From a virus (lineage: Duplodnaviria; Heunggongvirae; Uroviricota; Caudoviricetes): a DNA stretch of 12,963 bases. A program made the position numbers and the translations under genes. Every line of letters starts with the position of its first letter. Positions within the stretch are counted from its first letter, which is position 1. The DNA lies in IMG/VR virus record IMGVR_UViG_2541047825_000010, positions 1-12,963 of that record, one strand, 5' to 3'. The notes below the pieces were generated by a model. The model searched no databases, was not told where the DNA came from, and saw only the letters and a list, made by a program, of their open reading frames with translations. Of the stretch, positions 1 to 12,963 are shown in pieces.

Positions 1-1377
1 TCATACGTCAGCCCCTTGTGCATATCGTCTGCCACGCGCAGCAGGTGCATTTGATGCTGTGCAAATCTGTCTGGCTTCATCCTGGTCACATGCAACAAAG
101 TGTCCGTTGCAGAACCGCTGGTAAACCGTACCAAGTGAGCCAAAACGGTTTTTCGTCACAATGATTTCAGCAAATGGCGCGGCGCTACTGTTCTCGTCAT
201 ATACAGCTTCCCGATAGAGCATGATGATTGAGTCTGCGTCCTGTTCAATGCTTCCTGAATCACGCAAATCTGCGTTTGTCGGGCGTTTGTTTGGTCGCTT
301 CTCAACATCGCGCGAAAGCTGACTCAGGGAGATAACAGGCGTTTTCAGGTCTTTCGCCATCGCCTTCAGGCTTCCGGAGATGTGAGCAATTGCGAGGTCG
401 TTGCGATCTGCTTTCGGCTTCTCAATCAGGCCAAGATAATCCACCATGATGAGTGACAGGTTTGGATTTTCCTGTTTGTGCCGTTCTGCGATTGAGCGTA
501 TTTCTTCGACCGATAACCGCGAGGCATCGACTACCCATACATCCAAATCTGCAAGCTGACTCATGCCGTTAGCAACGCGCGCCCAGCCTTCGTCATCCAT
601 CGATGCAGGATTTCGCAGCACACTAACCGACATCCTCCCGGCGTTGGCAATACTTCGCTCTGCAATCTGCAATGCGCTCATTTCCATTGAGAAAATCAAC
701 ACTCCGCGCCGGACGTCAGAACCAGGAATAACGCGGCTTGCAACGCCTTCGGCAATCTTCAGCGCCAGTTCGGTTTTACCCATACCAGGACGAGCGGCGA
801 TAATCACCAGGTCTTCTGCGTTCATCCCTCCGGTGATGGCGTCAAGTTCGTCGATTCCGGTCTTCAGGGTATCTGACTCTTCTCCGTTCCTCAGACGCCT
901 GTCAAGCGTGTCAGTGTAGTCAGTGATGATTTCCCCTAACCGTACCGGTTTAACCTCGTCACGGGGCTTTCTGATGGCTGAAAGACGCTTTACAAGTTCA
1001 TCCATCGCCTGACTCGATGCGTCGATGGTTCCGCTCTGAATTGGTTCACGCATTTCATCCATGATTTCCAGCACCAGACGGCGGTGATAGTTATCCGCGA
1101 CCATTCCGGCATATCCCTTCAGGTTTGCGGCACTCGGGCAGTTTTTGCTGGTCATCAGGATTGACGTGAAATGCTCCTCTCCGCACGCCTCGGCAACCAT
1201 CAGCGCGTCGATTAAATTTCTGTTTCGCGCCTGCTTGCGGATAACCTCGAAGGCTTTCCGGTAGAGCGGAATTGAAAACGCTTCCGGCTCCAGCGTTGCC
1301 AGAACGTCGCTGGCGGTTGGAGTTAATCCACCAATCAGCAGGCCACCGATAACGCTCGCTTCGATATCCTGTCTCAT
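1..1377 (-). CDS. Replicative DNA helicase, DnaB family (phage P22 gene 12-type), 458 aa
   Basis: Full-length 458-aa ORF. Walker A P-loop [14 protein letters not shown] plus DnaB-like motifs [28 protein letters not shown]. Start ATG overlaps the stop of the upstream O-like gene (ATGA, 1374-1377). Stop codon is at window positions 1-3. Confidence 0.9.
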
Positions 1378-2321
1378 GCAATCCCCCTGTCTGCAAACTT
1401 CCCTTCCCGTACTCCCGTTAACGAATCTTCCCTCAACAGGTAATCAAAATCAGCCGTCCAGCCCGTGTCGTTGTCTCCGAAGTAAAACGGCTTGGCCTGA
1501 TGCACAAACGCCCTGACATACGCTCTGAAACCGTCCACGTTTGGCGTTTTCAGTTGCGGGATGATTTTCTTCAGGCGGCGTTTGCGTTTCTCGTTGACTG
1601 CAACAGCATGTGGAAGTCTGTCACCGACTTCGGTGTTGTAGGCGTTCAGGAAGGATTCGTAGTCGATTCGTTCTGCCTTGCGACGTTCAGGTTTAACCTG
1701 CCCATCGCCGCCCCCATTGGGGGGTAGGGGGGTATTATTTATATTCTTGTTAATACCTTCTTGTTCATGATGTGCGGTTGTTTGTGCGGCTTCATGTGCG
1801 CTTTCATGTGCGGAATGTGCGCTGAAAGCTGCGCCATTACTGGCTTCGTCATGTGCGGCATCATGTGCGGTTGTTTGTGCGGCATCATGTGCGGGTAAAT
1901 TGTCCATTTTTTGAGCATATTCATGGTAATTTGTGATGGTGATCACACGACCTTTTTGCTTCTCTCCATCAATGGAGATCATCCCTTCTTTCACAAAAAC
2001 CTGAAGCATCCGCTCAACCTGATCACGGCTTGCTGGCTTGCCATGTCTGTCGCATAACTGAAGACCTAAATCAGCTGCTGTCACAACCAGTTGACCGGGT
2101 TGCAGATGCCATTCATGACCTTTGAAATTCGCTTTGTATGGCTTTCTGGCGGCATTCAGGAGAAGGTTTTCCCACAGGGTGCGAAGATAAACATCTTTCG
2201 CCCATGACTGTTTCAGAATGCTCCGGTACAACGGAATGTAACCAGTTTTCTGGTTCTCCATCCTGTTGCTCCTGCGCTCGTGTGCGGCGCTGAAATCGTA
2301 GATTTTTGCTGTATTGCTCAT
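1374..2321 (-). CDS. Replication initiator, lambda O / P22 gene 18-like, 315 aa
   Basis: N-terminus [10 protein letters not shown] resembles lambda O (MTNTAKILNF, recalled). Lies between cII and the helicase as in lambdoid replication modules. Its central part is encoded by iteron repeats, giving a His/Ala-rich linker ([18 protein letters not shown]...). Confidence 0.85.
1765..1895. repeat. Candidate origin of replication: iterons inside the O-like gene, next to an AT-rich tract (1731-1764)
   Basis: About seven direct copies of a CATGTGCGG-type motif. The longer unit ATGTGCGGTTGTTTGTGCGGC occurs twice (about 1770 and 1870). The AT-rich block follows in the gene's reading direction, as in lambda ori. 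Confidence 0.6.
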
Positions 2322-2323
2322 AA

Positions 2324-2596
2324 CTACCTGCCTTGACGAAAGACCTTAAGAACATCGTTAAACTGACTTACGGATATGTCTTCTTTGAGAAGCTTTTCCA
2401 GAAATGCGTTTGGAATGAACGTATATCCCTCCTCTTTTGGTAGAGACGGGAGCAACGCCCTCGCCTCAGCCTTCAGAAGCTCAGTTCTGGCAACTTTCAC
2501 AAAAGAGATTTGAGTTCTTTCATCAATGGAACGAAGGAAGCGCAAACGCTTAGCTTCTTTGTGTGTATCAGGTGGATTAAAGCCTTTGTTTCGCAT
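2324..2596 (-). CDS. Hypothetical protein, 90 aa, between cII and the O-like gene
   Basis: Internal ATG at 2594-2596 preceded by a GAGG Shine-Dalgarno. The longer 193-aa track ORF would overlap cII, so the short start is preferred. No motif recognised. Confidence 0.5.
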   Translation of the reverse strand: MRNKGFNPPDTHKEAKRLRFLRSIDERTQISFVKVARTELLKAEARALLPSLPKEEGYTFIPNAFLEKLLKEDISVSQFNDVLKVFRQGR

Positions 2597-2601
2597 ATAA
2601 T
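2573..2601 (+). promoter_or_regulatory. Candidate Po promoter for the oop-like RNA
   Basis: -10 TATAAT at 2596-2601 with a weak -35 TGGATT at 2573-2578 (17-bp spacer), facing the cII 3' end. Confidence 0.4.
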
Positions 2602-2607
2602 TACCTC

Positions 2608-2672
2608 GTTGGATGTTGTTAAAATTCCATTTGTATTTGATCAGAACGCTCGGTTGCCGCCGGGCGTTTTTT
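2608..2672 (+). ncRNA. oop: oop-like antisense RNA overlapping the 3' end of cII
   Basis: 3' portion CAGAACGCTCGGTTGCCGCCGGGCGTTTTTTATT matches the lambda oop 3' end as recalled. Ends in a terminator (stem 2647-2653 / 2660-2666, T-run 2667-2672) lying inside the cII coding 3' end on the opposite strand. 5' end is estimated from the promoter. Confidence 0.55.
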
Positions 2673-2912
2673 ATTGGTGAGAATCGAAGCAACTTGTCGT
2701 GCCAATCGAGCCATGTCGTCGTCAACGACGCCCCATTCAAGAACAGCAAGCAGCATTGAGAACTTTGGAATCCAGTCCCTCTTCCACCTGCTGATCTGCG
2801 ACTTATCAACTCCCACAGCTTCCGCTGTCTTCTCAGTTCCAAGCATTGCGATTTTGTTAAGCAACGCACTCTCGATTCGTAGAGCCTCGTTGCGTTTGTT
2901 TGCACGAACCAT
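2619..2912 (-). CDS. cII: Transcriptional activator CII, 97 aa
   Basis: MVRANKRNEALRIESALLNKIAMLGTEKTAEAVGVDKSQISRWKRDWIPKF... is near-identical to lambda CII as recalled. Upstream context TAAGGAAATACTTACATATG matches lambda. The track ORF start at 2999 is an in-frame upstream extension. Confidence 0.92.
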   Translation of the reverse strand: MVRANKRNEALRIESALLNKIAMLGTEKTAEAVGVDKSQISRWKRDWIPKFSMLLAVLEWGVVDDDMARLARQVASILTNKKRPAATERSDQIQMEF

Positions 2913-2925
2913 ATGTAAGTATTTC
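2890..2925 (+). promoter_or_regulatory. pRE-type CII-activated promoter
   Basis: TTGC-N6-TTGC at 2890-2903 (TTGCGTTTGTTTGC) spanning the cII start, as in lambda pRE. Directed toward cro and c2. Confidence 0.5.
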
Positions 2926-2970
2926 CTTAACAAATAAGGAGTTATGCGCATCAACTTATGCGCGTTGTAT

Positions 2971-3013
2971 TCCCGCATTTCGGCGGGAATGAGGACCATG
3001 ACTGTTAAAGAGC
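2971..3013 (-). promoter_or_regulatory. nutR (boxA + boxB hairpin) between cro and cII
   Basis: On the minus strand: boxA GCTCTTTAACA and boxB TCCCGCCGAAATGCGGGA. Both are identical to the nutL copies at 4104-4144. Confidence 0.6.
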
Positions 3014-3020
3014 AATTTGC

Positions 3021-3206
3021 TTATGCCGCTTTGCGGTAAGCGCTTTCTTGATACTTCAGGGCGCCAGCTGTAACGACTTCCAGTCGATAGGCGTCTTTCT
3101 CTGGGATGACTTCCTTCCACTGAGAGACTGCTGCGTCGCTAATGCCTAACGCTTTAGCTACAGCACGCTGGGTTCCGAAGTGGTCGATAACATCTTTCTT
3201 GTACAT
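3021..3206 (-). CDS. cro: Cro repressor, P22 type, 61 aa
   Basis: MYKKDVIDHFGTQRAVAKALGISDAAVSQWKEVIPEKDAYRLE... is near-identical to P22 Cro as recalled. Divergent from c2 across the operator region. Confidence 0.92.
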   Translation of the reverse strand: MYKKDVIDHFGTQRAVAKALGISDAAVSQWKEVIPEKDAYRLEVVTAGALKYQESAYRKAA

Positions 3207-3220
3207 AGACTCGCTCCGAA

Positions 3221-3286
3221 ATTAAAGAACACTTAAATTATCCACTAAAGGAATCTTAAGTCAAGTTTATTTAAGATGTCTTAACT
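3221..3286. promoter_or_regulatory. OR1-OR3 operators with divergent PR (toward cro) and PRM (toward c2)
   Basis: Three 18-bp pseudo-palindromes of P22 type: ATTAAAGAACACTTAAAT (3221-3238), ACTAAAGGAATCTTAAGT (3244-3261), ATTTAAGATGTCTTAACT (3269-3286). Minus-strand PR: -35 TTGACT (3259-3264), 17-bp spacer, -10 ATAATT (3236-3241). c2 has no Shine-Dalgarno and may be leaderless. Confidence 0.7.
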
Positions 3287-3937
3287 ATGAAAACTCAATT
3301 GATGGGAGAGCGCATTCGCGCTCGGAGAAAAGAACTCAAGATCAGGCAGGCCGCACTTGGAAAGATGGTCGGCGTGTCTAATGTTGCCATATCTCAGTGG
3401 GAACGCTCTGAGACAGAGCCAAATGGAGAGAATCTTCTCGCCCTGGCTAATGCGTTGAAGTGTTCCCCTGACTATCTGATGAAAGGAGAGGAAAGTCTTT
3501 CAAACATTGCCTATCACAGTAGGCATGATCCAAGAGGGTCATACCCTCTGATTAGCTGGGTGAGCGCAGGATGCTGGATGGAAGCTGTAGAACCATATCA
3601 TAAGCGTGCAATAGATAACTGGTACGATACAACCGTAGACTGTTCAGAAGATTCGTTTTGGTTGGACGTGAAGGGAGACTCAATGACGGCTCCGGCCGGT
3701 CTCAGTATCCCTGAAGGAATGATAATACTCGTCGATCCTGAAGTAGAGCCGCGTAACGGGAAACTGGTAGTTGCAAAGCTCGAAGGAGAAAACGAGGCAA
3801 CTTTCAAGAAGTTAGTTATTGATGCAGGCAGGAAGTTTCTAAAACCACTTAACCCACAATATCCGATGATCGAGATCAACGGAAACTGCAAAATCATCGG
3901 CGTAGTTGTCGATGCAAAACTAGCAAACCTTCCATAA
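3287..3937 (+). CDS. c2: Prophage repressor C2 (CI-type, HTH plus LexA-like S24 autopeptidase domain), 216 aa
   Basis: Near-identical to P22 C2 as recalled (MxTQLMGERIRARRKxLKIRQAALGKMVGVSNVAISQWERSETEPNGENLL..., C-terminal GDSM...KL). Confidence 0.93.
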   Translation: MKTQLMGERIRARRKELKIRQAALGKMVGVSNVAISQWERSETEPNGENLLALANALKCSPDYLMKGEESLSNIAYHSRHDPRGSYPLISWVSAGCWMEAVEPYHKRAIDNWYDTTVDCSEDSFWLDVKGDSMTAPAGLSIPEGMIILVDPEVEPRNGKLVVAKLEGENEATFKKLVIDAGRKFLKPLNPQYPMIEINGNCKIIGVVVDAKLANLP

Positions 3938-3960
3938 GGGGGCATTCGCCCCTTTTTTTT
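3938..3960 (+). terminator. Rho-independent terminator after c2
   Basis: GGGGC-ATTC-GCCCC hairpin followed by eight T. Confidence 0.7.
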
Positions 3961-4002
3961 ATTTCCTTTAAAAATCAAAGCCAAACTTAAGTTACGAAAG
4001 AA

Positions 4003-4064
4003 AATTTAAGTTTTCTTCAAAAATACTCTTGACCATTAATTAAAGAGATCTTAAATTTAAGCCA
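4003..4064 (+). promoter_or_regulatory. OL operators and PL promoter
   Basis: Operator-like 18-mers ATTTAAGTTTTCTTCAAA (4004-4021) and ATTAAAGAGATCTTAAAT (4039-4056). -35 TTGACC (4029-4034), 17-bp spacer, -10 TAAATT (4052-4057), with the operator overlapping the promoter. Confidence 0.55.
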
Positions 4065-4103
4065 TCAGCAGGACGCTGGAAGCCAAACGGAACAGATTGG
4101 CAG

Positions 4104-4144
4104 GCTCTTTAACATTGATGGGATTGTCCCGCCGAAATGCGGGA
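4104..4144 (+). promoter_or_regulatory. nutL (boxA GCTCTTTAACA, boxB hairpin TCCCGC-CGAAAT-GCGGGA)
   Basis: Identical boxA and boxB to the minus-strand copy after cro. Lies in the PL leader upstream of N. Confidence 0.6.
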
Positions 4145-4160
4145 ACCAAAGAGTAGTTGG

Positions 4161-4232
4161 CTTTGGGGTGACGTGAAGTGCAGCTGCACGACGGCAACCG
4201 GAAGATAAGCACCCGGCGCGTCACCGCCAAAG
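4161..4232 (+). promoter_or_regulatory. Long-range stem-loop in the N leader
   Basis: CTTTGGGGTGACG (4161-4173) pairs with CGTCACCGCCAAAG (4219-4232). Encloses a perfect 12-bp palindrome GTGCAGCTGCAC (4178-4189). Lies 20 nt upstream of the N start. Confidence 0.4.
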
Positions 4233-4251
4233 TCAATCATCGGAGGTCAAC

Positions 4252-4551
4252 ATGACAGTAGTCATTACATATCTGGCTGACGATAACGCCAGAAATCGCC
4301 GCAGAGCACGCAGACAGGCTCAACGTGAACAGGCAATGCAAGAGCAGCGACTGGCGCGAAAAATTGCGCTAAAGCTCTCTGGTTGCGTCAGGGCAGATAA
4401 AGCAGCATCACTCGGAAGCCTTCGCTGCAAGAAGGCAGAAGAAGTCGAGCGTAAACAGAACCGTATTTACTACCGCAAGCCACGCAGTGAAATGGGTGTG
4501 ACTTGTGTTGGTCGCCAGAAAATGAAATTAGGCAGCAAACCACTTATTTGA
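4252..4551 (+). CDS. N: Antitermination protein N (P22 gene 24 equivalent), 99 aa
   Basis: N-terminal arginine-rich motif NARNRRRARRQAQREQ. C-terminus ...NRIYYRKPRSEMGVTCVGRQKMKLGSKPLI resembles the lambda N C-terminus as recalled. First gene after PL and nutL. Shine-Dalgarno GGAGG. Confidence 0.85.
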   Translation: MTVVITYLADDNARNRRRARRQAQREQAMQEQRLARKIALKLSGCVRADKAASLGSLRCKKAEEVERKQNRIYYRKPRSEMGVTCVGRQKMKLGSKPLI

Positions 4552-4559
4552 GGTGAGAT

Positions 4560-5030
4560 ATGACAAAATCATGGAGCGTACCTTTTCCTGAATCAGAAAC
4601 TGAACATGATGGAATGCCTGTTTTCTGGAGATTCCAGGCGACAGTTGAAGAAGATGGAATCAAAATATTCGCACTTCAATATATAGCTTTTCATCAGACA
4701 GAGCATTATGCATGGTTGGTTCCTGCGCATTGGATTATTGATTTTAAACCAGCACCAAATCAGTGGTTACGGGAATGGAAACAAAGGAGAAATAGATATG
4801 CAATTAAGAAAGTAGCAAAAAATGCAGAAAGATCTTTTGCATTCCCAACGAAGAAACTTGCCATTGAAAGTTTATTGCGCCGGAAGAAATACCATTTAAT
4901 GAGAATCAAACAAGATTTGGCTGTTGTATCAACTCTTGTTGATGGGATGAAGAATATTGATACATCAACACCAGATATTGAATATAACTTTGGACACAAC
5001 CAAGAAACAGAAAATTGGGTATTCTACTAG
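4560..5030 (+). CDS. Hypothetical protein, 156 aa, AT-rich moron
   Basis: ATG 8 nt after the N stop with Shine-Dalgarno AGGTGAG. G+C is lower than neighbours by eye. No predicted transmembrane segment and no recognised motif. Confidence 0.7.
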   Translation: MTKSWSVPFPESETEHDGMPVFWRFQATVEEDGIKIFALQYIAFHQTEHYAWLVPAHWIIDFKPAPNQWLREWKQRRNRYAIKKVAKNAERSFAFPTKKLAIESLLRRKKYHLMRIKQDLAVVSTLVDGMKNIDTSTPDIEYNFGHNQETENWVFY

Positions 5031-5054
5031 GCCGCATAGTCGGCCTTTATTTTT
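5029..5054 (+). terminator. Rho-independent terminator after the 156-aa ORF
   Basis: AGGCCG-CATAGT-CGGCCT hairpin followed by TTATTTTT. Confidence 0.6.
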
Positions 5055-5076
5055 GGCATAAACAACAGAGGTGAAT

Positions 5077-5211
5077 ATGAACGCAGTTGAATTTACAAAA
5101 TGGATGGCAGAGCAAGATATCACAGGAGCCGACGAAAAGGCTGTGTACTACATGGCTCTGCTATGGATTCACAAAGCAAAAGAGGCTGCAAATGCTCTTG
5201 GAGGTGAGTAA
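5077..5211 (+). CDS. Hypothetical small protein, 44 aa (MNAVEFTKWMAEQDITGADEKAVYYMALLWIHKAKEAANALGGE)
   Basis: Not in the ORF track (below 60 aa). Shine-Dalgarno AGAGGTGA 3-10 nt upstream of the ATG. Stop overlaps the next ORF's start (TAATG). Confidence 0.4.
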   Translation: MNAVEFTKWMAEQDITGADEKAVYYMALLWIHKAKEAANALGGE

Positions 5212-5399
5212 TGAAAGTAAAAATAACTGCTTCTAATACCAGTTTTGTTAGTGTTGGTGATATTACAGAAGTAATAACAAACCATGATGGAACACAAGTT
5301 ATGTGGTCTGATTTTTGTAAAAGATATGAGCGAGTCACTTGGTGTAAACTCGTATGGGGCGTCGAATACGAAGAATTACCTGAAATGCATGACGAATAA
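5211..5399 (+). CDS. Hypothetical protein, 62 aa
   Basis: Translationally coupled to the 44-aa ORF. Occupies the ral/sieB-type interval but has no recognised similarity. Confidence 0.5.
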   Translation: MKVKITASNTSFVSVGDITEVITNHDGTQVMWSDFCKRYERVTWCKLVWGVEYEELPEMHDE

Positions 5400-5494
5400 G
5401 CACTGTGTATTCATTCCAACGAGTGAATACACGGAGCAATGTCGCTCGTAACTAAACAGGAGCCGACTTGTTCTGATTATTGGAAATCTTCTTT

Positions 5495-5520
5495 GCCCTC
5501 CAGTGTGAGGGCCTTTTTAT
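5495..5520 (+). terminator. Rho-independent terminator upstream of cIII
   Basis: GCCCTC-CAGTGT-GAGGGC hairpin followed by CTTTTTAT. Confidence 0.55.
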
Positions 5521-5584
5521 ATGCATACCAATAACGCTTCACTCGAGGCGTTTTCGTTATGCAATCAAACAGAAGGAGCATCCT

Positions 5585-5755
5585 ATGCAACAGTTCGCTA
5601 TTGCAGGGGCGGCATCGGTTCGCCCTTTCAACCCGATTTTATCGGTACAGCATTCACGAAAAAATATTTTAACCGGAGCAGACTTTAAACAACCAAGAAT
5701 GAAAAGTTTGCTCGAAAAGCTTTGGGATATTTTGAAACAACAAGGCCGTCCATGA
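5585..5755 (+). CDS. cIII: CIII (FtsH inhibitor that stabilises CII), 56 aa
   Basis: MQQFAIAG... and the central ...MKSLLEKLWDILKQQG resemble lambda CIII (MQYAIAG...WKRLIDILNQPG, recalled). Shine-Dalgarno AAGGAG. The track ORF start at 5480 lies inside the upstream terminator and was rejected. Confidence 0.8.
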   Translation: MQQFAIAGAASVRPFNPILSVQHSRKNILTGADFKQPRMKSLLEKLWDILKQQGRP

Positions 5756-5922
5756 GTTTTATAGATAACTGGTCAGACGAAGAATTCATTCGTCAGATGA
5801 AAGAATTAATCGGTAACGAAGGAGATATTCATGTCACTTGCAACCACCGTGAAGGAGAGCAAGTTACAGAGACGCATGTACACGCGGCAGGCGTTAATGT
5901 ATCGCCAGAAGGGAGATCGTGA
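5752..5922 (+). CDS. Hypothetical protein, 56 aa, in the Kil position
   Basis: ATG overlaps the cIII stop (ATGA). Lambda kil likewise overlaps the cIII end. No sequence similarity recognised, so the Kil role is positional only. Confidence 0.45.
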   Translation: MSFIDNWSDEEFIRQMKELIGNEGDIHVTCNHREGEQVTETHVHAAGVNVSPEGRS

Positions 5923-6011
5923 AGGTGTTCGCGTCTTTTTAAATGCGGCAAAGACTGAAGTATTAAATCAGCGTTATTTCCTTGGGCCATGTCCATTCTG
6001 AGAACAATCAT

Positions 6012-6617
6012 ATGAGCAAAGAATTTTACGCAAGACTGGCAGCTATTCAGGAGAATCTGAACGCGCCAAAGAATCAGTACAACTCATTCGGCAAATATAA
6101 ATACAGAAGCTGCGAAGACATTCTTGAAGGCGTTAAGCCGTTACTGAATGGCCTGTTTTTATCAATCAGCGATGAAGTTGTGTTGATTGGTGATCGGTAT
6201 TACGTGAAAGCCACGGCAACTATTACCGATGGCGAAAACAGTCATACAGCAACCGCTCTTGCACGAGAGGAAGAAAGCAAGAAAGGAATGGATTCTGCAC
6301 AAGTTACTGGAGCTACAAGCTCTTATGCACGCAAGTATTGCCTCAATGGTTTATTCGGCATTGATGATGCGAAAGATGCAGATACCGACGAGCATAAACA
6401 TCAGCAGAACGCAGCAGCAAAGCAATCAAAACCATCACCTACACCTGAACAGGTTCTAAAAGCATTCACTGACGCAGCAATGCAGAAAAACACCGTAGAA
6501 GAGCTTAAACAGGCGTTCGCCAAAGCGTGGAAGATGCTCGAAGGCACACCGGAGCAGCACAAAGCGCAGGACGTTTACAACATCAGACGAGACGAATTAG
6601 AAGGAGCGGCTGCTTAA
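6012..6617 (+). CDS. erf: Erf, essential recombination function (single-strand annealing protein), 201 aa
   Basis: MSKEFYARLAAIQENLNAPKNQYNSFGKYKYRSCEDILEGVKPLL... closely matches P22 Erf as recalled. First ATG in frame; the track start at 5982 is a TTG. Confidence 0.9.
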   Translation: MSKEFYARLAAIQENLNAPKNQYNSFGKYKYRSCEDILEGVKPLLNGLFLSISDEVVLIGDRYYVKATATITDGENSHTATALAREEESKKGMDSAQVTGATSSYARKYCLNGLFGIDDAKDADTDEHKHQQNAAAKQSKPSPTPEQVLKAFTDAAMQKNTVEELKQAFAKAWKMLEGTPEQHKAQDVYNIRRDELEGAAA

Positions 6618-7000
6618 TGGCACATTCGATTACAGTAAGACTAAACAAACCCGCAAGAGAGTTTCAGGCCGGGGAAAATATCGGATTCAACATCCGTGCT
6701 GGCGTTCAGTATTACGATCGCCAGACAAAAAAGAAAGAATGGACAAACTACAGCGCCGTTGTATTTGCCAAGCCGGGAGCGCAAGCGGATTACTACCGTA
6801 GTGTTCTTGTTGAAGGTGGCATTGTGGAAATTACCGGAGAAAACATCAGGGTTGATGTTTATCAGGGGCAAAATGGTCAATCAATCACTCTTGAATTACT
6901 GAATGCAAAGATTGGATTTGCAGCTTCAGGAAACAGCCAACAGCAGCAAAGTAGCAATCATCAAAATCATCCTGAATACGACGATTCAATTCCATTCTAG
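6617..7000 (+). CDS. Compact SSB-like single-stranded DNA-binding protein, 127 aa
   Basis: C-terminal tip PEYDDSIPF resembles the conserved bacterial SSB tail DDDIPF, after a Q-rich linker and a short strand-rich N-terminal domain. Shine-Dalgarno AAGGAG. TAATG overlap with erf. Confidence 0.65.
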   Translation: MAHSITVRLNKPAREFQAGENIGFNIRAGVQYYDRQTKKKEWTNYSAVVFAKPGAQADYYRSVLVEGGIVEITGENIRVDVYQGQNGQSITLELLNAKIGFAASGNSQQQQSSNHQNHPEYDDSIPF

Positions 7001-7023
7001 ATTAGCAAAATAAGGATTCCATT

Positions 7024-7317
7024 ATGCCAGCGCCTCTGTATGGTGCGGATGACCCGCGCCGCTGTTCCGGCAATTCCGTATCGGAGGTGCTGGATAAATT
7101 CAGGAAAAACTACAACCGGATAATGTCGATACCGCAGGAAACGAAAGAGGAAAAGGAATTTCGCCATTGTATATGGCTTGCAGAGAAAGAAGAACGCGAG
7201 CGAATTTACCAGACATCAATCCGACCATTCCGCAAAGCCACATATACCCACTTCCCTGAAATTGACCCGCGCCTGCGTAATTACCGCTCACGCTATGGCG
7301 CTATCAGTAATGACTGA
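7024..7317 (+). CDS. Hypothetical protein, 97 aa
   Basis: Shine-Dalgarno TAAGGA 7 nt upstream. Position after erf and the 97-aa length are compatible with P22 Abc2 (anti-RecBCD), but this rests on synteny and length only. Confidence 0.6.
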
Positions 7318-7327
7318 GGAATTTACC

Positions 7328-7492
7328 ATGAGAGGACTTGCATACAATCCCGGCATTCTTCCGGCAGAAATGATTATTCGCCAACGCGTAAAGCCAATGC
7401 CATCGAGAGAGGAATTGCTTAAGAGAAATTCTTTTCCATCAGTGAATCAAAACAAATATCTGAATGCGATGTGGCGGAGTGGGAAAAAATGA
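7328..7492 (+). CDS. Hypothetical protein, 54 aa
   Basis: Shine-Dalgarno GAGGA 7 nt upstream. Stop overlaps the next start. Confidence 0.45.
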
Positions 7493-7926
7493 AACAAATG
7501 TCACTAATTGAGATGGATGGTTTTCTGAAAGGTAAATGCATCCCACGAGATTTAAAGGTTAACGAAACAAACGCTGAATATCTGGTGCGTAAATTTGCTG
7601 AAGCGGAGGCCAAGTGCGCGGCGCTGGCTGCTGAAGTTGAGGCTGTGAAATCAGCACATCAAGATGCTGTAAACACCATCATGTATACCGCCAATCGAAC
7701 GGGTGTTTTATACACAGAGAAGGCAATTCAAATGTCCTGCAAAACCCCGGCCACCGATGCTTTCCTGACTGAAGTCCGGGCTAAGGCGTTTGATGACCTT
7801 TGCGCGGCGTTCGTTAAGCACGCGTCGGTGTCCGGGCTGGACGATGGCGACTGCGTTACGGTGAAAGAGGCGACTGACGCCCTGCTGCATTGTGCGGAAC
7901 AGCTTCACAAGGGAGTGCATTCATGA
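7489..7926 (+). CDS. Hypothetical protein, 145 aa
   Basis: ATGA overlap with the upstream ORF. Shine-Dalgarno GGAG. Ala/Glu-rich predicted helical segment. No family recognised. Confidence 0.6.
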
Positions 7927-8156
7927 GCAACCTACTACCATGTCCATTCTGTGGCGGTGCAGCGCACGTTGCCAGCGAAGCAGATCACCCTGAATATGGC
8001 TCTGGCGGTCGATTCTATTTCGTTCGATGCGGTACGTGTCGCGCTCAATCTGGTAGCAAATATGCAGCGCCTGGAAATGACTGCGCGATTTTTTATTCAG
8101 AGGTTAGAGCAGAGTGGAATCAGCGAGCAAAGGAGGCAACCAGTGAGCAAGATTGA
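7923..8156 (+). CDS. Lar-family-like zinc-ribbon protein (restriction alleviation), 77 aa
   Basis: N-terminal LLPCPFCGG...C..C zinc-ribbon signature typical of the Lar family as recalled. ATGA overlap with the upstream gene. Confidence 0.6.
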   Translation: MSNLLPCPFCGGAAHVASEADHPEYGSGGRFYFVRCGTCRAQSGSKYAAPGNDCAIFYSEVRAEWNQRAKEATSEQD

Positions 8157-8550
8157 CTATCAGGCACTGCGTGAAGCGGCAGAGAAAGCCGGTGAAGATA
8201 AGTGGCAGGCTAAAAAAATAAATGGTGATTTTTTCGTTATTCGTCACGGTAGTTATACAAGACAGCATGGCTACACATCGTATCAACCCATTGCGGAGAT
8301 TGATTGTAAGCCAGTCCGGGATTTTGTTGCCAAGGCTAATCCGGCTACCGTGCTGGAATTACTGGATGAACTGGAAGCAGCAAAAAAGCGCATTGCAGAA
8401 CTGGAAGCGCGGGAAATATCGCTCCCGGAACGTAGCAGCATGCTTCATCGAACAGATTTTCACGATGATTACCAAACGGTAATGGCATACAAAGTTTCTG
8501 AAGTCATCGATGCAATCCGCGCTACTGGCATTCGCATCAAAGGAGAGTGA
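8143..8550 (+). CDS. Ead/Ea22-like protein, 135 aa
   Basis: GTG start 6 nt after a strong AGGAGG. KIDYQALREAAEKAGED and NPATVLELLDELEAAKKRIAELEA resemble Ea22-family motifs as recalled. Overlaps the Lar-like gene by 14 nt. Confidence 0.6.
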   Translation: MSKIDYQALREAAEKAGEDKWQAKKINGDFFVIRHGSYTRQHGYTSYQPIAEIDCKPVRDFVAKANPATVLELLDELEAAKKRIAELEAREISLPERSSMLHRTDFHDDYQTVMAYKVSEVIDAIRATGIRIKGE

Positions 8551-8551
8551 T

Positions 8552-8839
8552 ATGGCAACTTTGCAGGAATTAATCGACCTGACGCCAGAACAGGAAAAAG
8601 CGTGGAATCGCCTTGTGAAGGCTGTAAAGGATTTCAGGGCAGCCGGAGGAAAGTTTTATAGCGTCCTGGACACGCTGAGCGCATACAACGGCGAGCACGT
8701 TGCCAGCATTGATAACGATAAGGGCTACCACACTGCAAGCGTCTATATGCCTAGCATTGATGCGCCAGGGCTAACCAGTTGGGCTGATGATTGGCACGGC
8801 ATCACGCTGAAAGATGGCGTTGAAGTGGATGAGGACTAA
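8552..8839 (+). CDS. Hypothetical protein, 95 aa
   Basis: Shine-Dalgarno AGGAGAG. ATG 1 nt after the upstream stop. Confidence 0.6.
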   Translation: MATLQELIDLTPEQEKAWNRLVKAVKDFRAAGGKFYSVLDTLSAYNGEHVASIDNDKGYHTASVYMPSIDAPGLTSWADDWHGITLKDGVEVDED

Positions 8840-8842
8840 CAC

Positions 8843-9529
8843 ATGACTACTTTTACCGACAAAGAACTGATTAAAGAAATCAGAGAGCGAATCGGCAGCC
8901 TGGACGTGCGAGACAATATTGAGCGCCTGGCTTATGAAATCGCACTGGCATCGCTGGCAGCAGTATCGGATGAACGAGCAGCCTATGAATTATTTATGGA
9001 GAAGCGTTTCGGGGAATCTGTAGATCGCCGTAGGGCAAAAAATGGCGATAGAGAATACATGGCATGGGATATGGCGCTTGGCTGGATTATCTGGTGTCAC
9101 CGCGCCGCCATGCTTCAGGGTAGCCAACCTGTAAGCCAAACTTACAACTTGCCAGAATTAATCGAAGGCATGGAAGTTTCCATTGATGTAAGCACTTGTG
9201 ATGCTGATTTAGGTAATCGCTATTTCGGCACCGTCACCGAGGCGTTAGAACTTGATACAGCCAAGAATGGTTACATCCTCCTGGTTCAGGACGCAGAGCC
9301 AAACTTCGATGTAAATGGCAACTATCCGGTAATTCCGGATGGTTGGATAAGCTGTAGTGAGCGAATGCCCCCTCAAGATGATTGGATTTTAATTTATTCA
9401 AAGCACGGCGAGTATATGGCAGGACAGGTGCAAGGGGAATACGTGGAGTTGAGCGACGGCACTTTATCGTGGTTAGGGAACGTCTTGTTCTGGATGACGT
9501 TGCCAGAACCTCCGAAGGGGGCGAAATGA
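8843..9529 (+). CDS. DUF551-like phage protein, 228 aa
   Basis: C-terminal DGWISCSERMPPQDDWILIY...WMTLPEPP resembles the DUF551 signature as recalled. Shine-Dalgarno GAGGA. Confidence 0.7.
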   Translation: MTTFTDKELIKEIRERIGSLDVRDNIERLAYEIALASLAAVSDERAAYELFMEKRFGESVDRRRAKNGDREYMAWDMALGWIIWCHRAAMLQGSQPVSQTYNLPELIEGMEVSIDVSTCDADLGNRYFGTVTEALELDTAKNGYILLVQDAEPNFDVNGNYPVIPDGWISCSERMPPQDDWILIYSKHGEYMAGQVQGEYVELSDGTLSWLGNVLFWMTLPEPPKGAK

Positions 9530-9786
9530 TGGATGTAAAAGAGAAGGTTTTGCAGGTGATGCGTTCCCGGGCTGCCCTGCAAGATAAAGCTCTCGGCGGG
9601 GAATATCCATTCACGATAGCAACCTGGAATCTGCGGTTGGCAATGGAGAAGGAATTTCCTGATGAAGAATGGCGTTCGGCAGATTTGCGCAAAATTCTTA
9701 TGGAGCTGGCTAAAGACGGAACAGTATCCAAAGATACCCATGCCAGCCGGATTGGTCAGGCGGTATGGAGACTGGAGGTGAGGTAA
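9526..9786 (+). CDS. Hypothetical protein, 86 aa
   Basis: ATGA overlap with the upstream stop. Shine-Dalgarno AAGGGGG. Confidence 0.6.
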   Translation: MMDVKEKVLQVMRSRAALQDKALGGEYPFTIATWNLRLAMEKEFPDEEWRSADLRKILMELAKDGTVSKDTHASRIGQAVWRLEVR

Positions 9787-10070
9787 TGGCTAACCTGCAA
9801 CTTGCCGTTAAAGGTGAATACTTCGATGCCATGATTCGCGGGGAGAAAACGGAAGAGTATCGCCTGTGTAATGACTACTGGAATAAGCGCCTCGTTAACC
9901 GTAAGTATGACCGCCTGATTATCACAAAGGGATATCCGAAGCGCGACGATTCCAGCCGCAGAATTGACGTCCCGTATGACGGATATGAAATCAAGACAAT
10001 CACACATCCCCACTTCGGCGATAAACCGGTAAAGGTGTTCGCGATAAAGGTGAATATCGGCAATGAATAA
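9786..10070 (+). CDS. ASCH-like small beta-barrel protein, 94 aa
   Basis: LAVKGEYFDAMIRGEKTEEYR fits the ASCH pattern (YF..I..G.KT.E.R) as recalled. TAATG coupling. Shine-Dalgarno GGAGGTGAGG. Confidence 0.55.
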   Translation: MANLQLAVKGEYFDAMIRGEKTEEYRLCNDYWNKRLVNRKYDRLIITKGYPKRDDSSRRIDVPYDGYEIKTITHPHFGDKPVKVFAIKVNIGNE

Positions 10071-10104
10071 CAATCCTCGAACTCGCGGGGATTTCTTTTA
10101 TCTG

Positions 10105-10130
10105 AACTCGCTACGGCGGGTTTTGTTTTA
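10105..10130 (+). terminator. Rho-independent terminator closing the coupled operon
   Basis: AACTCGC-TACG-GCGGGTT hairpin followed by TTGTTTTA. A degenerate upstream copy sits at 10078-10100. Confidence 0.45.
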
Positions 10131-10141
10131 TGGAGATGATT

Positions 10142-10441
10142 ATGGCCTGTTCAACATTCAACCATCTAACGTTACAGAAATACCAGCCAGACCCTGAAGA
10201 TTTATGCTCACTGTGTGGCGGAAATCATGGTAAAGCCGCCATGATCGAATGTAAGGACAAAATCCACATTTGCCTTAATTGCGTTGATGTCCTCGTTGAT
10301 ATCAAAAATGAGAGAGAAGATAAAAAGCGTAGCGAGGCTATTCGCGCATTAGATTCATGGATGCGAGATGGGTATAGTGCTGCGCAAATTTATGACTTCG
10401 CAATATCAAAAGGCGAAATACCAGGAGTGCGCATCGAATAA
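10142..10441 (+). CDS. Hypothetical Cys-rich (CxxC...CxxC) protein, 99 aa
   Basis: Three in-frame ATGs (10130, 10136, 10142). 10142 is chosen for the GGAGA Shine-Dalgarno 5 nt upstream. Cysteine pairs CSLCGG and CLNC. Confidence 0.55.
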   Translation: MACSTFNHLTLQKYQPDPEDLCSLCGGNHGKAAMIECKDKIHICLNCVDVLVDIKNEREDKKRSEAIRALDSWMRDGYSAAQIYDFAISKGEIPGVRIE

Positions 10442-10483
10442 GACGTAACCAATATTCGAATTGAAGAACTGAAAGAACACCAA

Positions 10484-10506
10484 GCCGCCTGATGGCGGTT
10501 TTTTAT
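10484..10506 (+). terminator. Rho-independent terminator
   Basis: CCGCC-TGAT-GGCGG hairpin followed by TTTTTTATT. Confidence 0.6.
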
Positions 10507-10518
10507 TGGAGACAAGAA

Positions 10519-10863
10519 ATGTCAGATTTGGCTATGAAGATTTTGAAATGGCAAACGACTGGCGATGTTGGCATCAGTAGCGCAACTCTTGCCTCAATCG
10601 CATGTGGACTGAAAAAGAATATCTATGGTCATCACTTCGGCGCTCCACATGACGCAGCAGATTTCCGACGATGCGTTGCACTTGTTGAGCAGATTCCAGA
10701 AGTCAGAGATTCATTCGACAAGGTTGCAAAGCGTGTTCCGGCATTCAAAGGCATTCTCAACGAATGGGATTCCCTCGTTGCTCTGTTGAAGTCTGAAATG
10801 AAGATACACGGAAACAAAGCACCAGAGACTTACAGAAGAATTAGCGAGTTACGCAAGGATTAA
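10519..10863 (+). CDS. Hypothetical protein, 114 aa
   Basis: Shine-Dalgarno GGAGA 6 nt upstream. The gene sits between the terminator at 10484-10506 and the two downstream terminators. No family recognised. Confidence 0.6.
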   Translation: MSDLAMKILKWQTTGDVGISSATLASIACGLKKNIYGHHFGAPHDAADFRRCVALVEQIPEVRDSFDKVAKRVPAFKGILNEWDSLVALLKSEMKIHGNKAPETYRRISELRKD

Positions 10864-10868
10864 CCACA

Positions 10869-10945
10869 GCCTCACACTCGATGAGGCCTGTTCATTTCTC
10901 AAGATATCCAGACCTACCATCGCCGCATCAATGCGGTTTTTTATT
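10869..10945 (+). terminator. Two tandem terminator hairpins
   Basis: GCCTCA-CACTCGA-TGAGGC (10869-10887, weak T-run) and CCGCA-TCAA-TGCGG followed by TTTTTTATT (10923-10945). Confidence 0.55.
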
Positions 10946-10952
10946 ACCTGAT

Positions 10953-10968
10953 TTGCAGGTTCGATTCC
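10953..10968 (+). other. tRNA 3'-half fragment: T-arm portion TTGCAGGTTCGATTCC (att-associated)
   Basis: 16-nt match to the T-stem and T-loop of a tRNA (argW-type tRNA-Arg as recalled). Similarity stops right after GATTCC. Confidence 0.4.
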
Positions 10969-10987
10969 CTATTCGGAGATAGCACTC

Positions 10988-11188
10988 ATGCAACACGAAC
11001 TACAGCCTGATTCACTGGTTGATTTGAAATTCATCATGGCCGATACTGGCTTTGGTAAAACCTTCATCTACGACCGGATTAAGTCCGGCGACCTGCCAAA
11101 AGCCAAAGTTATCCACGGGCGAGCAAGATGGTTATATCGTGACCATTGTGAATTCAAAAATAAGCTCTTAAGCCGCGCCAATGGGTAA
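10988..11188 (+). CDS. AlpA/Xis-like excisionase-type DNA-binding protein, 66 aa
   Basis: LVDLKFIMADTGFGKTFIYDRIKSGDLPKAKVIHGRARW fits the AlpA-family HTH pattern as recalled. Shine-Dalgarno GGAGA. Lies next to the att-like tRNA fragments. Confidence 0.65.
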   Translation: MQHELQPDSLVDLKFIMADTGFGKTFIYDRIKSGDLPKAKVIHGRARWLYRDHCEFKNKLLSRANG

Positions 11189-11261
11189 AATAGCGGGTAA
11201 AATATTTCTCACATCTAAAAAACACCATTCTAATCAATCCCCTGCCGCGTCAAGTAGATGT

Positions 11262-11276
11262 CTGCAGGGGACACCA
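11262..11276 (+). other. tRNA 3'-end fragment CTGCAGGGGACACCA (acceptor 3' strand plus CCA; att-associated)
   Basis: Matches the 3' terminus of the same tRNA. No corresponding 5' half anywhere in the window. Confidence 0.45.
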
Positions 11277-11662
11277 GATACCCTTCAAACGATATCTACC
11301 TTCACCCCGTAAAAGATAAGTTTGGCAGCACATTTGCCCTATCTACTCATTTTTCCTGCAACAGGTTGAAATCTCAACACGGTCAGAAAACGCTGATGAC
11401 TAAACAGCCCTGGGCTGGGCGATGTAACCATCACACACAATCCTGATCGCGAAATATGGCGTGACTTGATACTTCACTCCACAATGCTTTCCTTGATGAA
11501 TTCGCAGGCCCGTGATACACGGGACAGGTCGCTGAATTACGACAATGCCCTGGAAATCAGCGAGCCGTGTATCCGGAGTACATTTGAGCGACTGTACCAG
11601 AACATGAATGAGGCGTTTGGATTAGGCGATTATTAGCAGGGCTAAGCATTTTGGTATTATTA

Positions 11663-11706
11663 TTTTCCGGTTGAGGGATATAGAGCTATCGACAACAACC
11701 GGAAAA
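11663..11706. terminator. Inverted repeat, candidate bidirectional terminator at the cscB 3' end
   Basis: TTTTCCGGTTG (11663-11673) and CAACCGGAAAA (11696-11706) with a 22-nt loop and AT-rich flanks. Lies between convergent reading frames. Confidence 0.4.
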
Positions 11707-11715
11707 AGTTTACGT

Positions 11716-12963
11716 TTATATTGCTGAAGGTACTGGCGTTTCCATCACTATTTGCTCACGTTTTTTACTCAGGAAGAAAATGCCAAATAGCAACATCAGG
11801 CAGACAATACCCGAAATTGCGAAAAAAACCGTCTGGTAGCCTGCGTGGTCAAAGAGTATCCCAGTCGGCGTTGAAAGCAGCACAATCCCCAACGAACTGG
11901 CAATTTGAAAACCAATCAGAAAGATCGTCGACGACAGGCGCTTATCAAAATTTGCCACGCTGTATTTGAAGACGGATATGACACAAAGTGGAACCTCAAT
12001 GGCATGTAACAGCTTCACTAATGAAATAATCCAGGGGTTAACGAATAGCGCGCAGGAAAGGATACGCAACGCCATAATCACAACACCGATAAGTAATGCA
12101 TTTTTTGGCCCTACCCGATTCACAAAGAAAGGAATAATCGCCATGCACAGCGCTTCGAGTACCACCTGGAATGAGTTGAGATAACCATACAGGCGCGTTC
12201 CTACATCGTGGGATTCGAATAAACCTGCATAAAAGACAGGAAAGAGTTGTTGATCAAAAATGTTATAGAAAGACCACGTCCCCACAATAAATATGACGAA
12301 AACCCAGAAGTTTCGATCCTTGAAAACTGCGATAAAATCCTCTTTTTTTACCCCTCCCACATCCGCCGCTACGCACTGGTGTTCCTGCTCTTTAAAACGC
12401 ATGTTGATCATCATAAATACAGCGCCAAATAGAGAGACCAACCAGAAGTTGATATGGGGACTGATACTAAAAAATATGCCAGCAAAGAATGCGCCAATAG
12501 CATAGCCAAAAGATCCCCAGGCGCGCGCTGTTCCATATTCGAAATGAAAATTTCGCGCCATTTTTTCGGTGAAGCTGTCAAGCAAACCGCATCCCGCCAG
12601 ATACCCCAGACCAAAAAAGAGCGCCCCCAGAATTAAACCTACAGAAAAATTGCTTTGCAGTAACGGTTCATAAACGTAAATCATAAACGGTCCGGTCAAG
12701 ACCAAGATGAAACTCATACACCAGATGAGCGGTTTCTTCAGACCGAGTTTATCCTGAACGATGCCGTAGAACATCATAAATAGAATGCTGGTAAACTGGT
12801 TGACCGAATAAAGTGTACCTAATTCCGTCCCTGTCAACCCTAGATGTCCTTTCAGCCAAATAGCGTATAATGACCACCACAGCGACCAGGAAATAAAAAA
12901 GAGAAATGAGTAACTGGATGCAAAACGATAGTACGCATTTCTGAATGGAATATTCAGTGCCAT
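11716..12963 (-). CDS. cscB: Sucrose:H+ symporter, LacY-family MFS (CscB-like), 415 aa
   Basis: Twelve-helix hydrophobic profile. Clear LacY-like blocks (DKLGLKK, GPFMIYVYEPLLQ, EYGTARAWGSFGYAIG, PKNALLIG). N-terminus MALNIPFRNAYYRF matches CscB as recalled. Start codon is at the window edge. Confidence 0.85.
   Translation of the reverse strand: MALNIPFRNAYYRFASSYSFLFFISWSLWWSLYAIWLKGHLGLTGTELGTLYSVNQFTSILFMMFYGIVQDKLGLKKPLIWCMSFILVLTGPFMIYVYEPLLQSNFSVGLILGALFFGLGYLAGCGLLDSFTEKMARNFHFEYGTARAWGSFGYAIGAFFAGIFFSISPHINFWLVSLFGAVFMMINMRFKEQEHQCVAADVGGVKKEDFIAVFKDRNFWVFVIFIVGTWSFYNIFDQQLFPVFYAGLFESHDVGTRLYGYLNSFQVVLEALCMAIIPFFVNRVGPKNALLIGVVIMALRILSCALFVNPWIISLVKLLHAIEVPLCVISVFKYSVANFDKRLSSTIFLIGFQIASSLGIVLLSTPTGILFDHAGYQTVFFAISGIVCLMLLFGIFFLSKKREQIVMETPVPSAI

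Follow-up and report, generated by a model that had tools for sequence, protein, structure and literature searches.

The window, i.e. the whole stretch of DNA that was analysed, comprises 12,963 nucleotides (nt) of a Caudoviricetes sequence (IMG/VR virus record IMGVR_UViG_2541047825_000010, positions 1 to 12,963). Here we follow up an earlier note on one segment of it (10105-10945), in which two open reading frames (ORFs), encoding a cysteine-rich protein of 99 amino acids (aa) and a protein of 114 aa, lie among terminator-like hairpins. Judged by its sequence, this locus is where the N-antiterminated early-left (pL) operon ends, in the so-called exo-xis region of a lambdoid prophage of the HK620/Sf6 type. 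The explanation that we favour, and hold with moderate confidence, is that the distal end of the pL operon carries two unrelated and exchangeable early accessory cassettes, placed between linkers that are composed of a terminator and a Shine-Dalgarno (SD) sequence and that would act as gate and as joints. The region is ordinary lambdoid anatomy: its architecture is that of classic lambdoid phages, in which the majority of these hairpins received a name or a prediction decades ago.

Terminator-like hairpins flank the two ORFs

The segment and its immediate surroundings contain the following elements:

10072..10099 (hairpin 10072-10093), + strand: H1, AATCCTCG-N6-CGGGGATT followed by TCTTTT; -9.7 kcal/mol, z -3.4
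10104..10129, + strand: H2, second of a tandem pair, GAACTCGC-TACG-GCGGGTTT followed by TTTTGTTTT; -11 kcal/mol; conserved SD GGAG directly after
10142-10441, + strand: 99-aa Cys-rich ORF, phrog_3680 (unknown function); coding sequence (CDS) in RefSeq in a 100%-identical genome
10442..10492, + strand: fossil 3' end of lambda/434 orf55, DVTNIRIEELKEHQAA followed by a stop codon that lies in the H3 loop; recognised by alignment with 434, HK022 and lambda and by translation
10482..10504, + strand: H3, (AA)GCCGCC-TGAT-GGCGG(TT) followed by T6; -13.4 kcal/mol
10519-10863, + strand: 114-aa ORF, corresponding to ORF114 of phage 434, phrog_1229; RefSeq CDS in a 100%-identical genome and 434 GenBank record
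10865..10918, + strand: fossilised 5' part of an HTH_17 excisionase gene, HSLTLDEACSFLKISRPT, 18 codons, start codon lost; intact gene in locus L072
10869-10887, + strand: H4, a palindrome with a weak T tail (CTGTTCATTT), inside the fossil 5' end of the excisionase gene
10922..10943, + strand: H5, GCCGCA-TCAA-TGCGGT followed by T6; -8.3 kcal/mol
10988-11188, + strand: torI, excisionase (recombination directionality factor) of the argW-type module of KplE1/HK620/Sf6; RefSeq annotation, K-12 CPS-53 layout, PMC3509656

Five terminator-like sites were detected on the + strand between 10072 and 10937, as compared to 0.43 expected from shuffled sequences (Poisson P ~9e-5). Scanning and folding revealed a G+C-rich stem-loop on the transcribed strand in all five cases, and each of them folds better than its dinucleotide shuffles (z -3.0 to -3.6). 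A T run directly follows the stem in H1 (TCTTTT), H2 (TTTTGTTTT), H3 and H5 (T6 in both), but not in H4 (CTGTTCATTT). The earlier note had counted four hairpins. These are real and exceed what is expected by chance, but H1 had been overlooked; the first hairpin of that count is H2, the second of the tandem pair, and H4 does not convince as a terminator because of its poor T tail and its location in the coding relic of an excisionase gene. In locus L072, an intact 116-aa HTH_17 gene (Pfam HTH_17, 35.5 bits) begins 3 nt after the ORF114 stop codon; as the start codon of this gene is gone in the window, H4 is regarded as a relic of coding sequence.

Most of the hairpins have counterparts in well-studied phages. 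H1 is the feature annotated as tL4 terminator in phages 434 (M60848) and HK022 (X51962), and it is present in lambda, too (29335-29356c). H2 adjoins the 3' side of H1 in all three phages, the lambda copy being identical (29299-29324c). H3 is identical to a lambda hairpin (29106-29126c) that abuts the cII-dependent promoter pI and xis, and it is probably the terminator t'I of lambda. The terminators predicted for lambda's exo-xis region include H2 and H3, the latter designated t5 (Bloch et al. 2014, PMC4195576). H5 corresponds to the annotated t'-I of 434, with which it aligns except for one stem-closing base (GCGGT vs GCGGC), and for the t'I terminator PMID 6305007 is given in the complete genome record of 434. 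At the sixth pair of the stem, H3 has C-G and H5 has A-T, i.e. a compensatory change, and from their sequences the two hairpins look like diverged copies of one element. The paper cited for t'I of 434 is said to be that of Benedik, Mascarenhas and Campbell from 1983, dealing with pI and t'I of lambda and 434. The stems are preserved in 160 related loci, and the position of H1 is sometimes held by unrelated hairpins with the same T tract. The compensatory changes, the kept stems and the replacement of one hairpin by another argue that hairpin structure is under selection.

Expression of both ORFs probably depends on antiterminated read-through

The spacing of terminators and start codons is tight, about as the earlier note had stated. 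The T tract of H2 ends at 10129 and is followed by the SD GGAG at 10132-10135 and the ATG at 10142, 13 nt after the T tract. Similarly, the H3 T tract runs to 10504 and precedes an SD at 10509-10512 and an ATG at 10519, which is 15 nt downstream of that tract. Thus, the only element between either T tract and the respective start codon is a GGAG SD sequence. No sigma-70-like site was found between 10040 and 10990 by a consensus scan, which is crude and would miss weak, activator-dependent or non-sigma-70 promoters, and neither the scan nor inspection by eye yielded a private promoter for the 99-aa ORF, for ORF114 or for torI. The elements required for antitermination appear to be present at the other end of the operon:

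4029-4057, + strand: pL-like promoter, TTGACC-17-TAAATT, detected by the promoter scan
4103..4143, + strand: nutL-like site composed of boxA-like GGCTCTTTAACA and boxB-like hairpin CCCGCCGAAATGCGGG, recognised by eye
4252-4551, + strand: N-like antiterminator gene, 99 aa, with arginine-rich motif NARNRRRARRQAQRE; phrog_271 'anti-termination protein N-like', E 4.8e-37

The boxA/boxB-like site is situated downstream of the pL-like promoter and upstream of the N-like gene, and represents a probable nutL site. The exo-xis region has been described as transcribed from pL (PMC4195576). The missing sigma-70-like sites, the N-like gene and the nutL-like site support the idea, previously raised for the 99-aa gene, that expression depends on N-mediated read-through of terminators; we infer that this probably holds for both ORFs. 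In the proposed mechanism, unmodified RNA polymerase would be stopped stepwise at H1/H2, H3 and H5, and pL transcription modified by N would read through into both ORFs and torI after infection or induction only. The excisionase gene torI would thereby be silent in the lysogen. The terminator cluster ahead of the excisionase gene fits the idea that termination protects lysogeny; Menouni et al. reportedly showed in 2013 that transcription termination guards prophage maintenance.

The window as a whole displays an excess of terminator-like sites (31 vs 12.6 +/- 3.6 in shuffles; e.g. 2643-2670, 3936-3955, 5029-5046 and 5495-5512) and a depletion of promoter-like sites (6 vs 18.7 +/- 3.5), which is consistent with a terminator-punctuated operon driven by few promoters.

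Cassettes are exchanged at terminator-plus-SD linkers

The segment upstream of xis in lambda, 434 and HK022 resembles the locus in order and strand, and nucleotide identity amounts to 95-97% for H1, H2, the 3' end of orf55, H3, ORF114, H4 and H5. In these phages as well, they close the pL operon ahead of the excisionase gene. The arrangements are as follows:

lambda: H1-H2-orf55-H3-pI/xis
434 and HK022: H1-H2-orf55-H3-ORF114-H4-H5-pI/xis
window: H1-H2-99-aa gene-orf55 3' fossil (10442-10492)-H3-ORF114-H4-H5-torI

Thus, the window carries the 99-aa zinc-finger gene, as do Sf6 and 933W, where lambda, 434 and HK022 carry orf55; for 933W, 'a portion of orf55' has been reported near xis (PMC8614690). 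Moreover, the pI-xis-int module of these phages is replaced by torI and attR in the window, with int located at the other prophage end, and because of this replacement no cII-dependent pI follows H5: the cII site and -35 region of lambda/434 pI, CTTGCGTGTAATTGCGG, are absent from the window, and the next gene after H5 is torI. The same TorI family and the same position of torI, last before attR at the argW-side locus, are found in the KplE1 (CPS-53)/HK620/Sf6 module, but in K-12 KplE1 yfdT/ypdJ are located upstream of torI instead of the ORF114 cassette.

The neighbourhood of ORF114 was surveyed in 80 viral contigs carrying this gene. Upstream of it, H2 was fused directly in 28 loci and orf55 was present in 20, the 99-aa gene in 2, the 99-aa gene together with orf55 in 3 and other genes in 27, among them genes for other small Cys-rich proteins. 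In the direct fusions, H2 is joined to the SD sequence of ORF114, reading GGCGGGTTTTGTTTTATGGAGACAAGAAATG, and therefore the cross-over must have occurred inside the sequence TTTTAT(T)GGAGA that the H2 and H3 linkers have in common. At least five unrelated excisionase types were found downstream of ORF114, namely TorI, lambda Xis, an AlpA-like protein of 63 aa, the HTH_17 protein of 116 aa and a protein starting with MSEVNLIV, and the orf55 and HTH_17 xis fossils are located at cassette joints. The comparison of loci shows that cassettes are inserted, deleted and swapped by recombination between the linkers, owing to the similarity of their sequences (GGCGG-T-run-AT(T)GGAGA).

The 99-aa gene and ORF114 assort independently, and by co-occurrence and adjacency they do not constitute an obligate two-gene module. 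Almost all of 80 contigs with the 99-aa gene carry H1-H2 upstream and H3 downstream of it, but only ~15 of them possess ORF114, and the 99-aa gene is present in 5 of the 80 ORF114 loci. Among 5,426 complete E. coli genomes, 317 carry the 99-aa gene, 940 (17%) carry ORF114 and 42 (0.8%) carry the contiguous pair. Some piece of the 901-bp region comprising the locus occurs in 2,793 of these genomes, the linkers being its most widespread parts. Terminator-plus-SD linkers therewith provide a clear example of short regulatory elements doubling as recombination joints, through which one ORF114 cassette is coupled to at least five different excision modules.

In loci L008, L020, L022 and L026, the slot upstream of H3/ORF114 is occupied by different small Cys-rich proteins, e.g. 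one with the sequence MSCPKCGSGNIAKEK...CCDCGY..., and the joints of the slot vary in where they fall in the orf55 3' fossil. This slot seems to be filled recurrently by small zinc-ribbon proteins.

The 99-aa protein carries a putative ClpX-like zinc finger

Both ORFs are real genes: RefSeq calls the same CDSs, and both have homologues down to 30-60% identity in which residues are invariant. The statement that neither protein matches a family holds insofar as their functions are unknown, but both belong to catalogued PHROG families, one being annotated as ORF114 in 434 and the other being known as gp19 in Sf6. Homology searches and structure prediction, suggested as a check, returned no Pfam, NCBIfam or PADLOC match above threshold for either protein; they did return the PHROG families and, for ORF114, a confident model without a solved relative.

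The 99-aa protein is 95-97% identical to Sf6 gp19 and to a protein annotated as hypothetical in 933W, VT2-Sakai and many other Shiga toxin (Stx) phages; in Sf6 and 933W/VT2-Sakai it is the same gene in the same place, directly upstream of the excisionase module, with no difference of substance. Relatives with 45-60% identity occur in Enterobacter and Klebsiella. Codon changes among alleles comprise 38 synonymous and 36 non-synonymous ones, and in the family alignment a near-invariant N-terminal half is followed by a variable middle and a semi-conserved C-terminus. The literature searched yielded no published function for Sf6 gp19 or the 99-aa protein of 933W, and no functional study of tL4, ORF114 or phage mimics of the ClpX N-domain.

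The protein consists of a putative N-terminal CxxC-x18-CxxC zinc finger of the ClpX type, a long helix and a C-terminal part. Cysteines 22, 25, 44 and 47 are invariant in 22 family members, but Cys 37 is not, and their spacing is the same as that of C14, C17, C36 and C39 in ClpX. Besides spacing, the likeness to the N-terminal C4 domain of ClpX (PF06689; PDB 1OVX, 2DS5-2DS8) extends to the motifs CS(L/F)CG and IC..CVD(L/V) and to the helix that follows. In contrast to ClpX, the 99-aa protein is a stand-alone protein without an AAA+ module, its scores are below threshold and its C-terminal part is unrelated. Matches to zf-C4_ClpX were obtained for 16 of the 22 family members, all of them sub-threshold (best E 0.0013). 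A search of the PDB with the family profile returned no hits other than ClpX (top five, best E 0.016), and hhalign aligned the family with the N-terminus of E. coli ClpX over 38 columns at 91% probability. Homology to Ea8.5 of lambda, a homeodomain/zinc-finger hybrid, was likewise considered and was rejected at an hhalign probability of 0.5%.

From its sequence, the zinc-ribbon protein most likely acts by binding a protein partner, possibly in competition with clients of the ClpX N-domain. A more specific version would see it as a decoy of this domain, made early, which binds clients or adaptors, or the N-domain itself, and protects particular proteins, for instance the replication initiator of the phage, against ClpXP. 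Such a role is conceivable because the N-domain of ClpX forms dimers by itself and recognises MuA and FtsZ as well as the adaptors SspB and RssB (PMC5415555), and the identical spacing of four invariant cysteines, the zf-C4_ClpX matches and the profile matches to ClpX speak for it. We nevertheless regard the decoy as unlikely.

ORF114 represents a widespread early-gene family with a predicted all-alpha fold

For ORF114, AlphaFold predicts an all-alpha protein of seven helices with a predicted local distance difference test (pLDDT) score of 92. Searches of the PDB with the single sequence and with the family profile returned noise only, i.e. no solved structural relative, and Foldseek searches against viral models matched uncharacterised family members only. 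A profile search of 1.84 billion cluster representatives detected 2,898 relatives at E up to 0.001, of which 695 reach E up to 1e-10. An alignment of 43 diverse members revealed S20, P43, D45, D48, R51, C52 and W83 as invariant residues, and close alleles differ by 46 synonymous vs 16 non-synonymous codon changes, indicating strong purifying selection. This synonymous excess and the confident model further support ORF114 as a genuine gene.

One relative resides in a Mu-like Vibrio prophage, where its place in the semi-essential early region is between Kil/DUF3164 and GemA/Mor, and others in the early regions of other temperate phages. In Escherichia and Vibrio phages of 58-60 kb, relatives are encoded by small early genes beside a recombination exonuclease or a Lar-like protein, and some of the phage genomes have no lysogeny genes near the match. 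Distant relatives are always found in small early-gene clusters, where no recurrent genomic partner was seen. Because of these settings, the family is not tied to integration modules or lysogeny. ORF114, a compact helical protein, is probably a binder of a host protein, our best guess being a conserved target.

A further-reaching reading combines both proteins: the 99-aa protein would be a mimic of the ClpX N-domain that rewires the choice of ClpXP substrates and adaptors early on, and ORF114, founder of a very large phage protein family with the motif P-x-D-x-x-D-x-x-R-C and a fold without solved relative, would target a conserved host process. We consider this combination rather unlikely; if true, ClpX mimicry or host targeting by ORF114 would be a new mechanism of host takeover in textbook phages (434, HK022, Sf6, 933W). 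Independent of this, interest lies in two abundant uncharacterised proteins, i.e. one with a ClpX-like finger in Stx phages and Sf6 and an ORF114 fold without solved relative that has ~2,900 cluster representatives in phages of several bacterial phyla.

In many database proteins (P0051, P0053, P0066, P0073, P0088, P0089), a fragment of ORF114 is fused to Kil, Erf, an Ea22-like protein or a dATP/dGTP pyrophosphohydrolase, which points to in-frame deletions that are frequent across the exo-xis region and have endpoints inside ORF114. The fusions look like further deletion scars. Of ten longer proteins with an ORF114 domain, nine gave nothing in a Pfam scan, and the tenth (P0218, 558 aa) is composed of the head of a CCA-adding enzyme/poly(A) polymerase, an HD domain and a C-terminal ORF114-like domain. 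It is possibly a hint of a link to tRNA repair or a gene-calling fusion, and is treated as an anecdote.

Early phage proteins rather than lysogenic-conversion cargo

The earlier note had placed the ORFs among the accessory cargo near att, a common location of defence or virulence modules. In this reading, the two genes would be an att-proximal anti-phage defence or virulence module for lysogenic conversion, expressed from the prophage, with products that possibly act jointly. Their position near the prophage end, their unknown functions, the frequency of ORF114 in E. coli prophages (940 of 5,426 genomes) and the presence of both genes in Stx-converting phages would be in line with this. However, none of the families in PADLOC-DB matched the 99-aa protein or ORF114 (E up to 1). 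Both genes are situated within the pL operon in the same orientation and do not form a separately transcribed moron; a terminator directly precedes each of them, and no promoter-like site is found. Their independent assortment speaks against joint action, and relatives of ORF114 are located in Mu-like early regions and in phage genomes without lysogeny genes near the match. Conversion cargo is therefore quite improbable, and both proteins are presumed to be early phage proteins like other products of the exo-xis region.

Morons, as reportedly defined by Juhala et al. in 2000, are extra genes that separate two genes found side by side in a related phage and that are equipped with their own promoter and terminator. 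ORF114 with H4/H5 resembles them in being inserted at a place where, in lambda, H3 adjoins pI/xis, and in having its own downstream terminator. It differs from them in that no promoter was found and a terminator precedes the gene, and for these reasons expression of ORF114 would be expected in lytic growth, not in the lysogen.

Very unlikely, finally, is the reading that the hairpins primarily serve as stabilisers of mRNA 3' ends, processing sites or conserved recombination linkers and that transcription passes them regardless of N: their modest stabilities, their position exactly at mosaic joints and the demonstrable origin of H4 from coding sequence would agree with it, but on the transcribed strand H1, H2, H3 and H5 possess the stem and T run that mark intrinsic terminators, the 434 annotation lists H1 and H5 as terminators and gives a literature reference for H5, and compensatory changes as well as hairpin replacement preserve the structure. 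Roles as terminator, stabiliser and linker are not mutually exclusive.

Several points weigh against terminator-gated, exchangeable pL cassettes as the explanation of the locus. Termination efficiency, read-through and N dependence are all deduced from sequence, the promoter scan relies on simple matching to a consensus, and nutL was assigned by eye only. Hairpin stability is modest (-8 to -13 kcal/mol), and some of the hairpins may therefore be leaky. Work on the maintenance of KplE1 is said to have pointed to Rho-dependent, not intrinsic, termination. On the protein side, neither product has a known partner or phenotype. The 99-aa protein itself scores below threshold with zf-C4_ClpX (PF06689; E 0.014, 15.7 bits vs a gathering threshold of 27), and its AlphaFold model is poor, with pLDDT 69 overall and 56-58 in the ClpX-like part.

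Location of the segment within the prophage

The window covers the early-left arm of the prophage, the + strand being the direction of pL transcription. The series on this strand comprises cI, the N-like gene, CIII, Kil, Erf, SSB, Abc2, Ea22-like, DUF551, ASCH, the two ORFs and torI; two further genes of the series are located as follows:

3287-3937: cI-type repressor gene in the early-left arm of the prophage
9765..10070, + strand: ASCH-domain gene, the last gene ahead of the hairpin cluster; RefSeq annotation of an identical genome and a sub-threshold Pfam ASCH match

The segment had been described as the int-proximal end, which does not apply. The window contains no integrase gene, and in the argW-type module int is found at the opposite prophage end. 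The final prophage gene before attR is torI, and the host sucrose permease gene cscB follows ~530 bp later on the opposite strand. Since torI and then cscB adjoin and int is at the other end, the site is the excisionase/attR end. Two complete E. coli genomes contain the 901-bp region at 100% identity, and both ORFs are annotated there as 'hypothetical protein'.

The interval between torI and cscB (11189-11715) is expected to contain attR, and in the identical genome it includes a fragment annotated as DUF4942-domain protein (~11430-11636). The prophage adjoins the csc sucrose-utilisation locus, beside dsdA. A search of Rfam with 9500-11800 at E up to 1 gave no match, and a tRNA/tmRNA scan called nothing, including at a stretch (10955-10969, GCAGGTTCGATTCCC) that is located ~20 nt upstream of the torI SD sequence and resembles a tRNA T-arm (GGTTCGATTCC). 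A T-arm-like stretch of the GCAGGTTCGATTCCC type also occurs upstream of the gene for a divergent TorI-type protein in locus L082. This stretch may be left over from a tRNA-derived attachment site, or may serve the recombination module as a regulatory or binding site.

In E. coli Combat2C1, which matches the region at 100%, an IS100 element (istA/istB) is inserted in a phage replication gene (L001 173-1974 vs window 1-1377). At the position of IS100, the window has an uninterrupted ORF of 458 aa, and therefore represents a different or uninterrupted copy.

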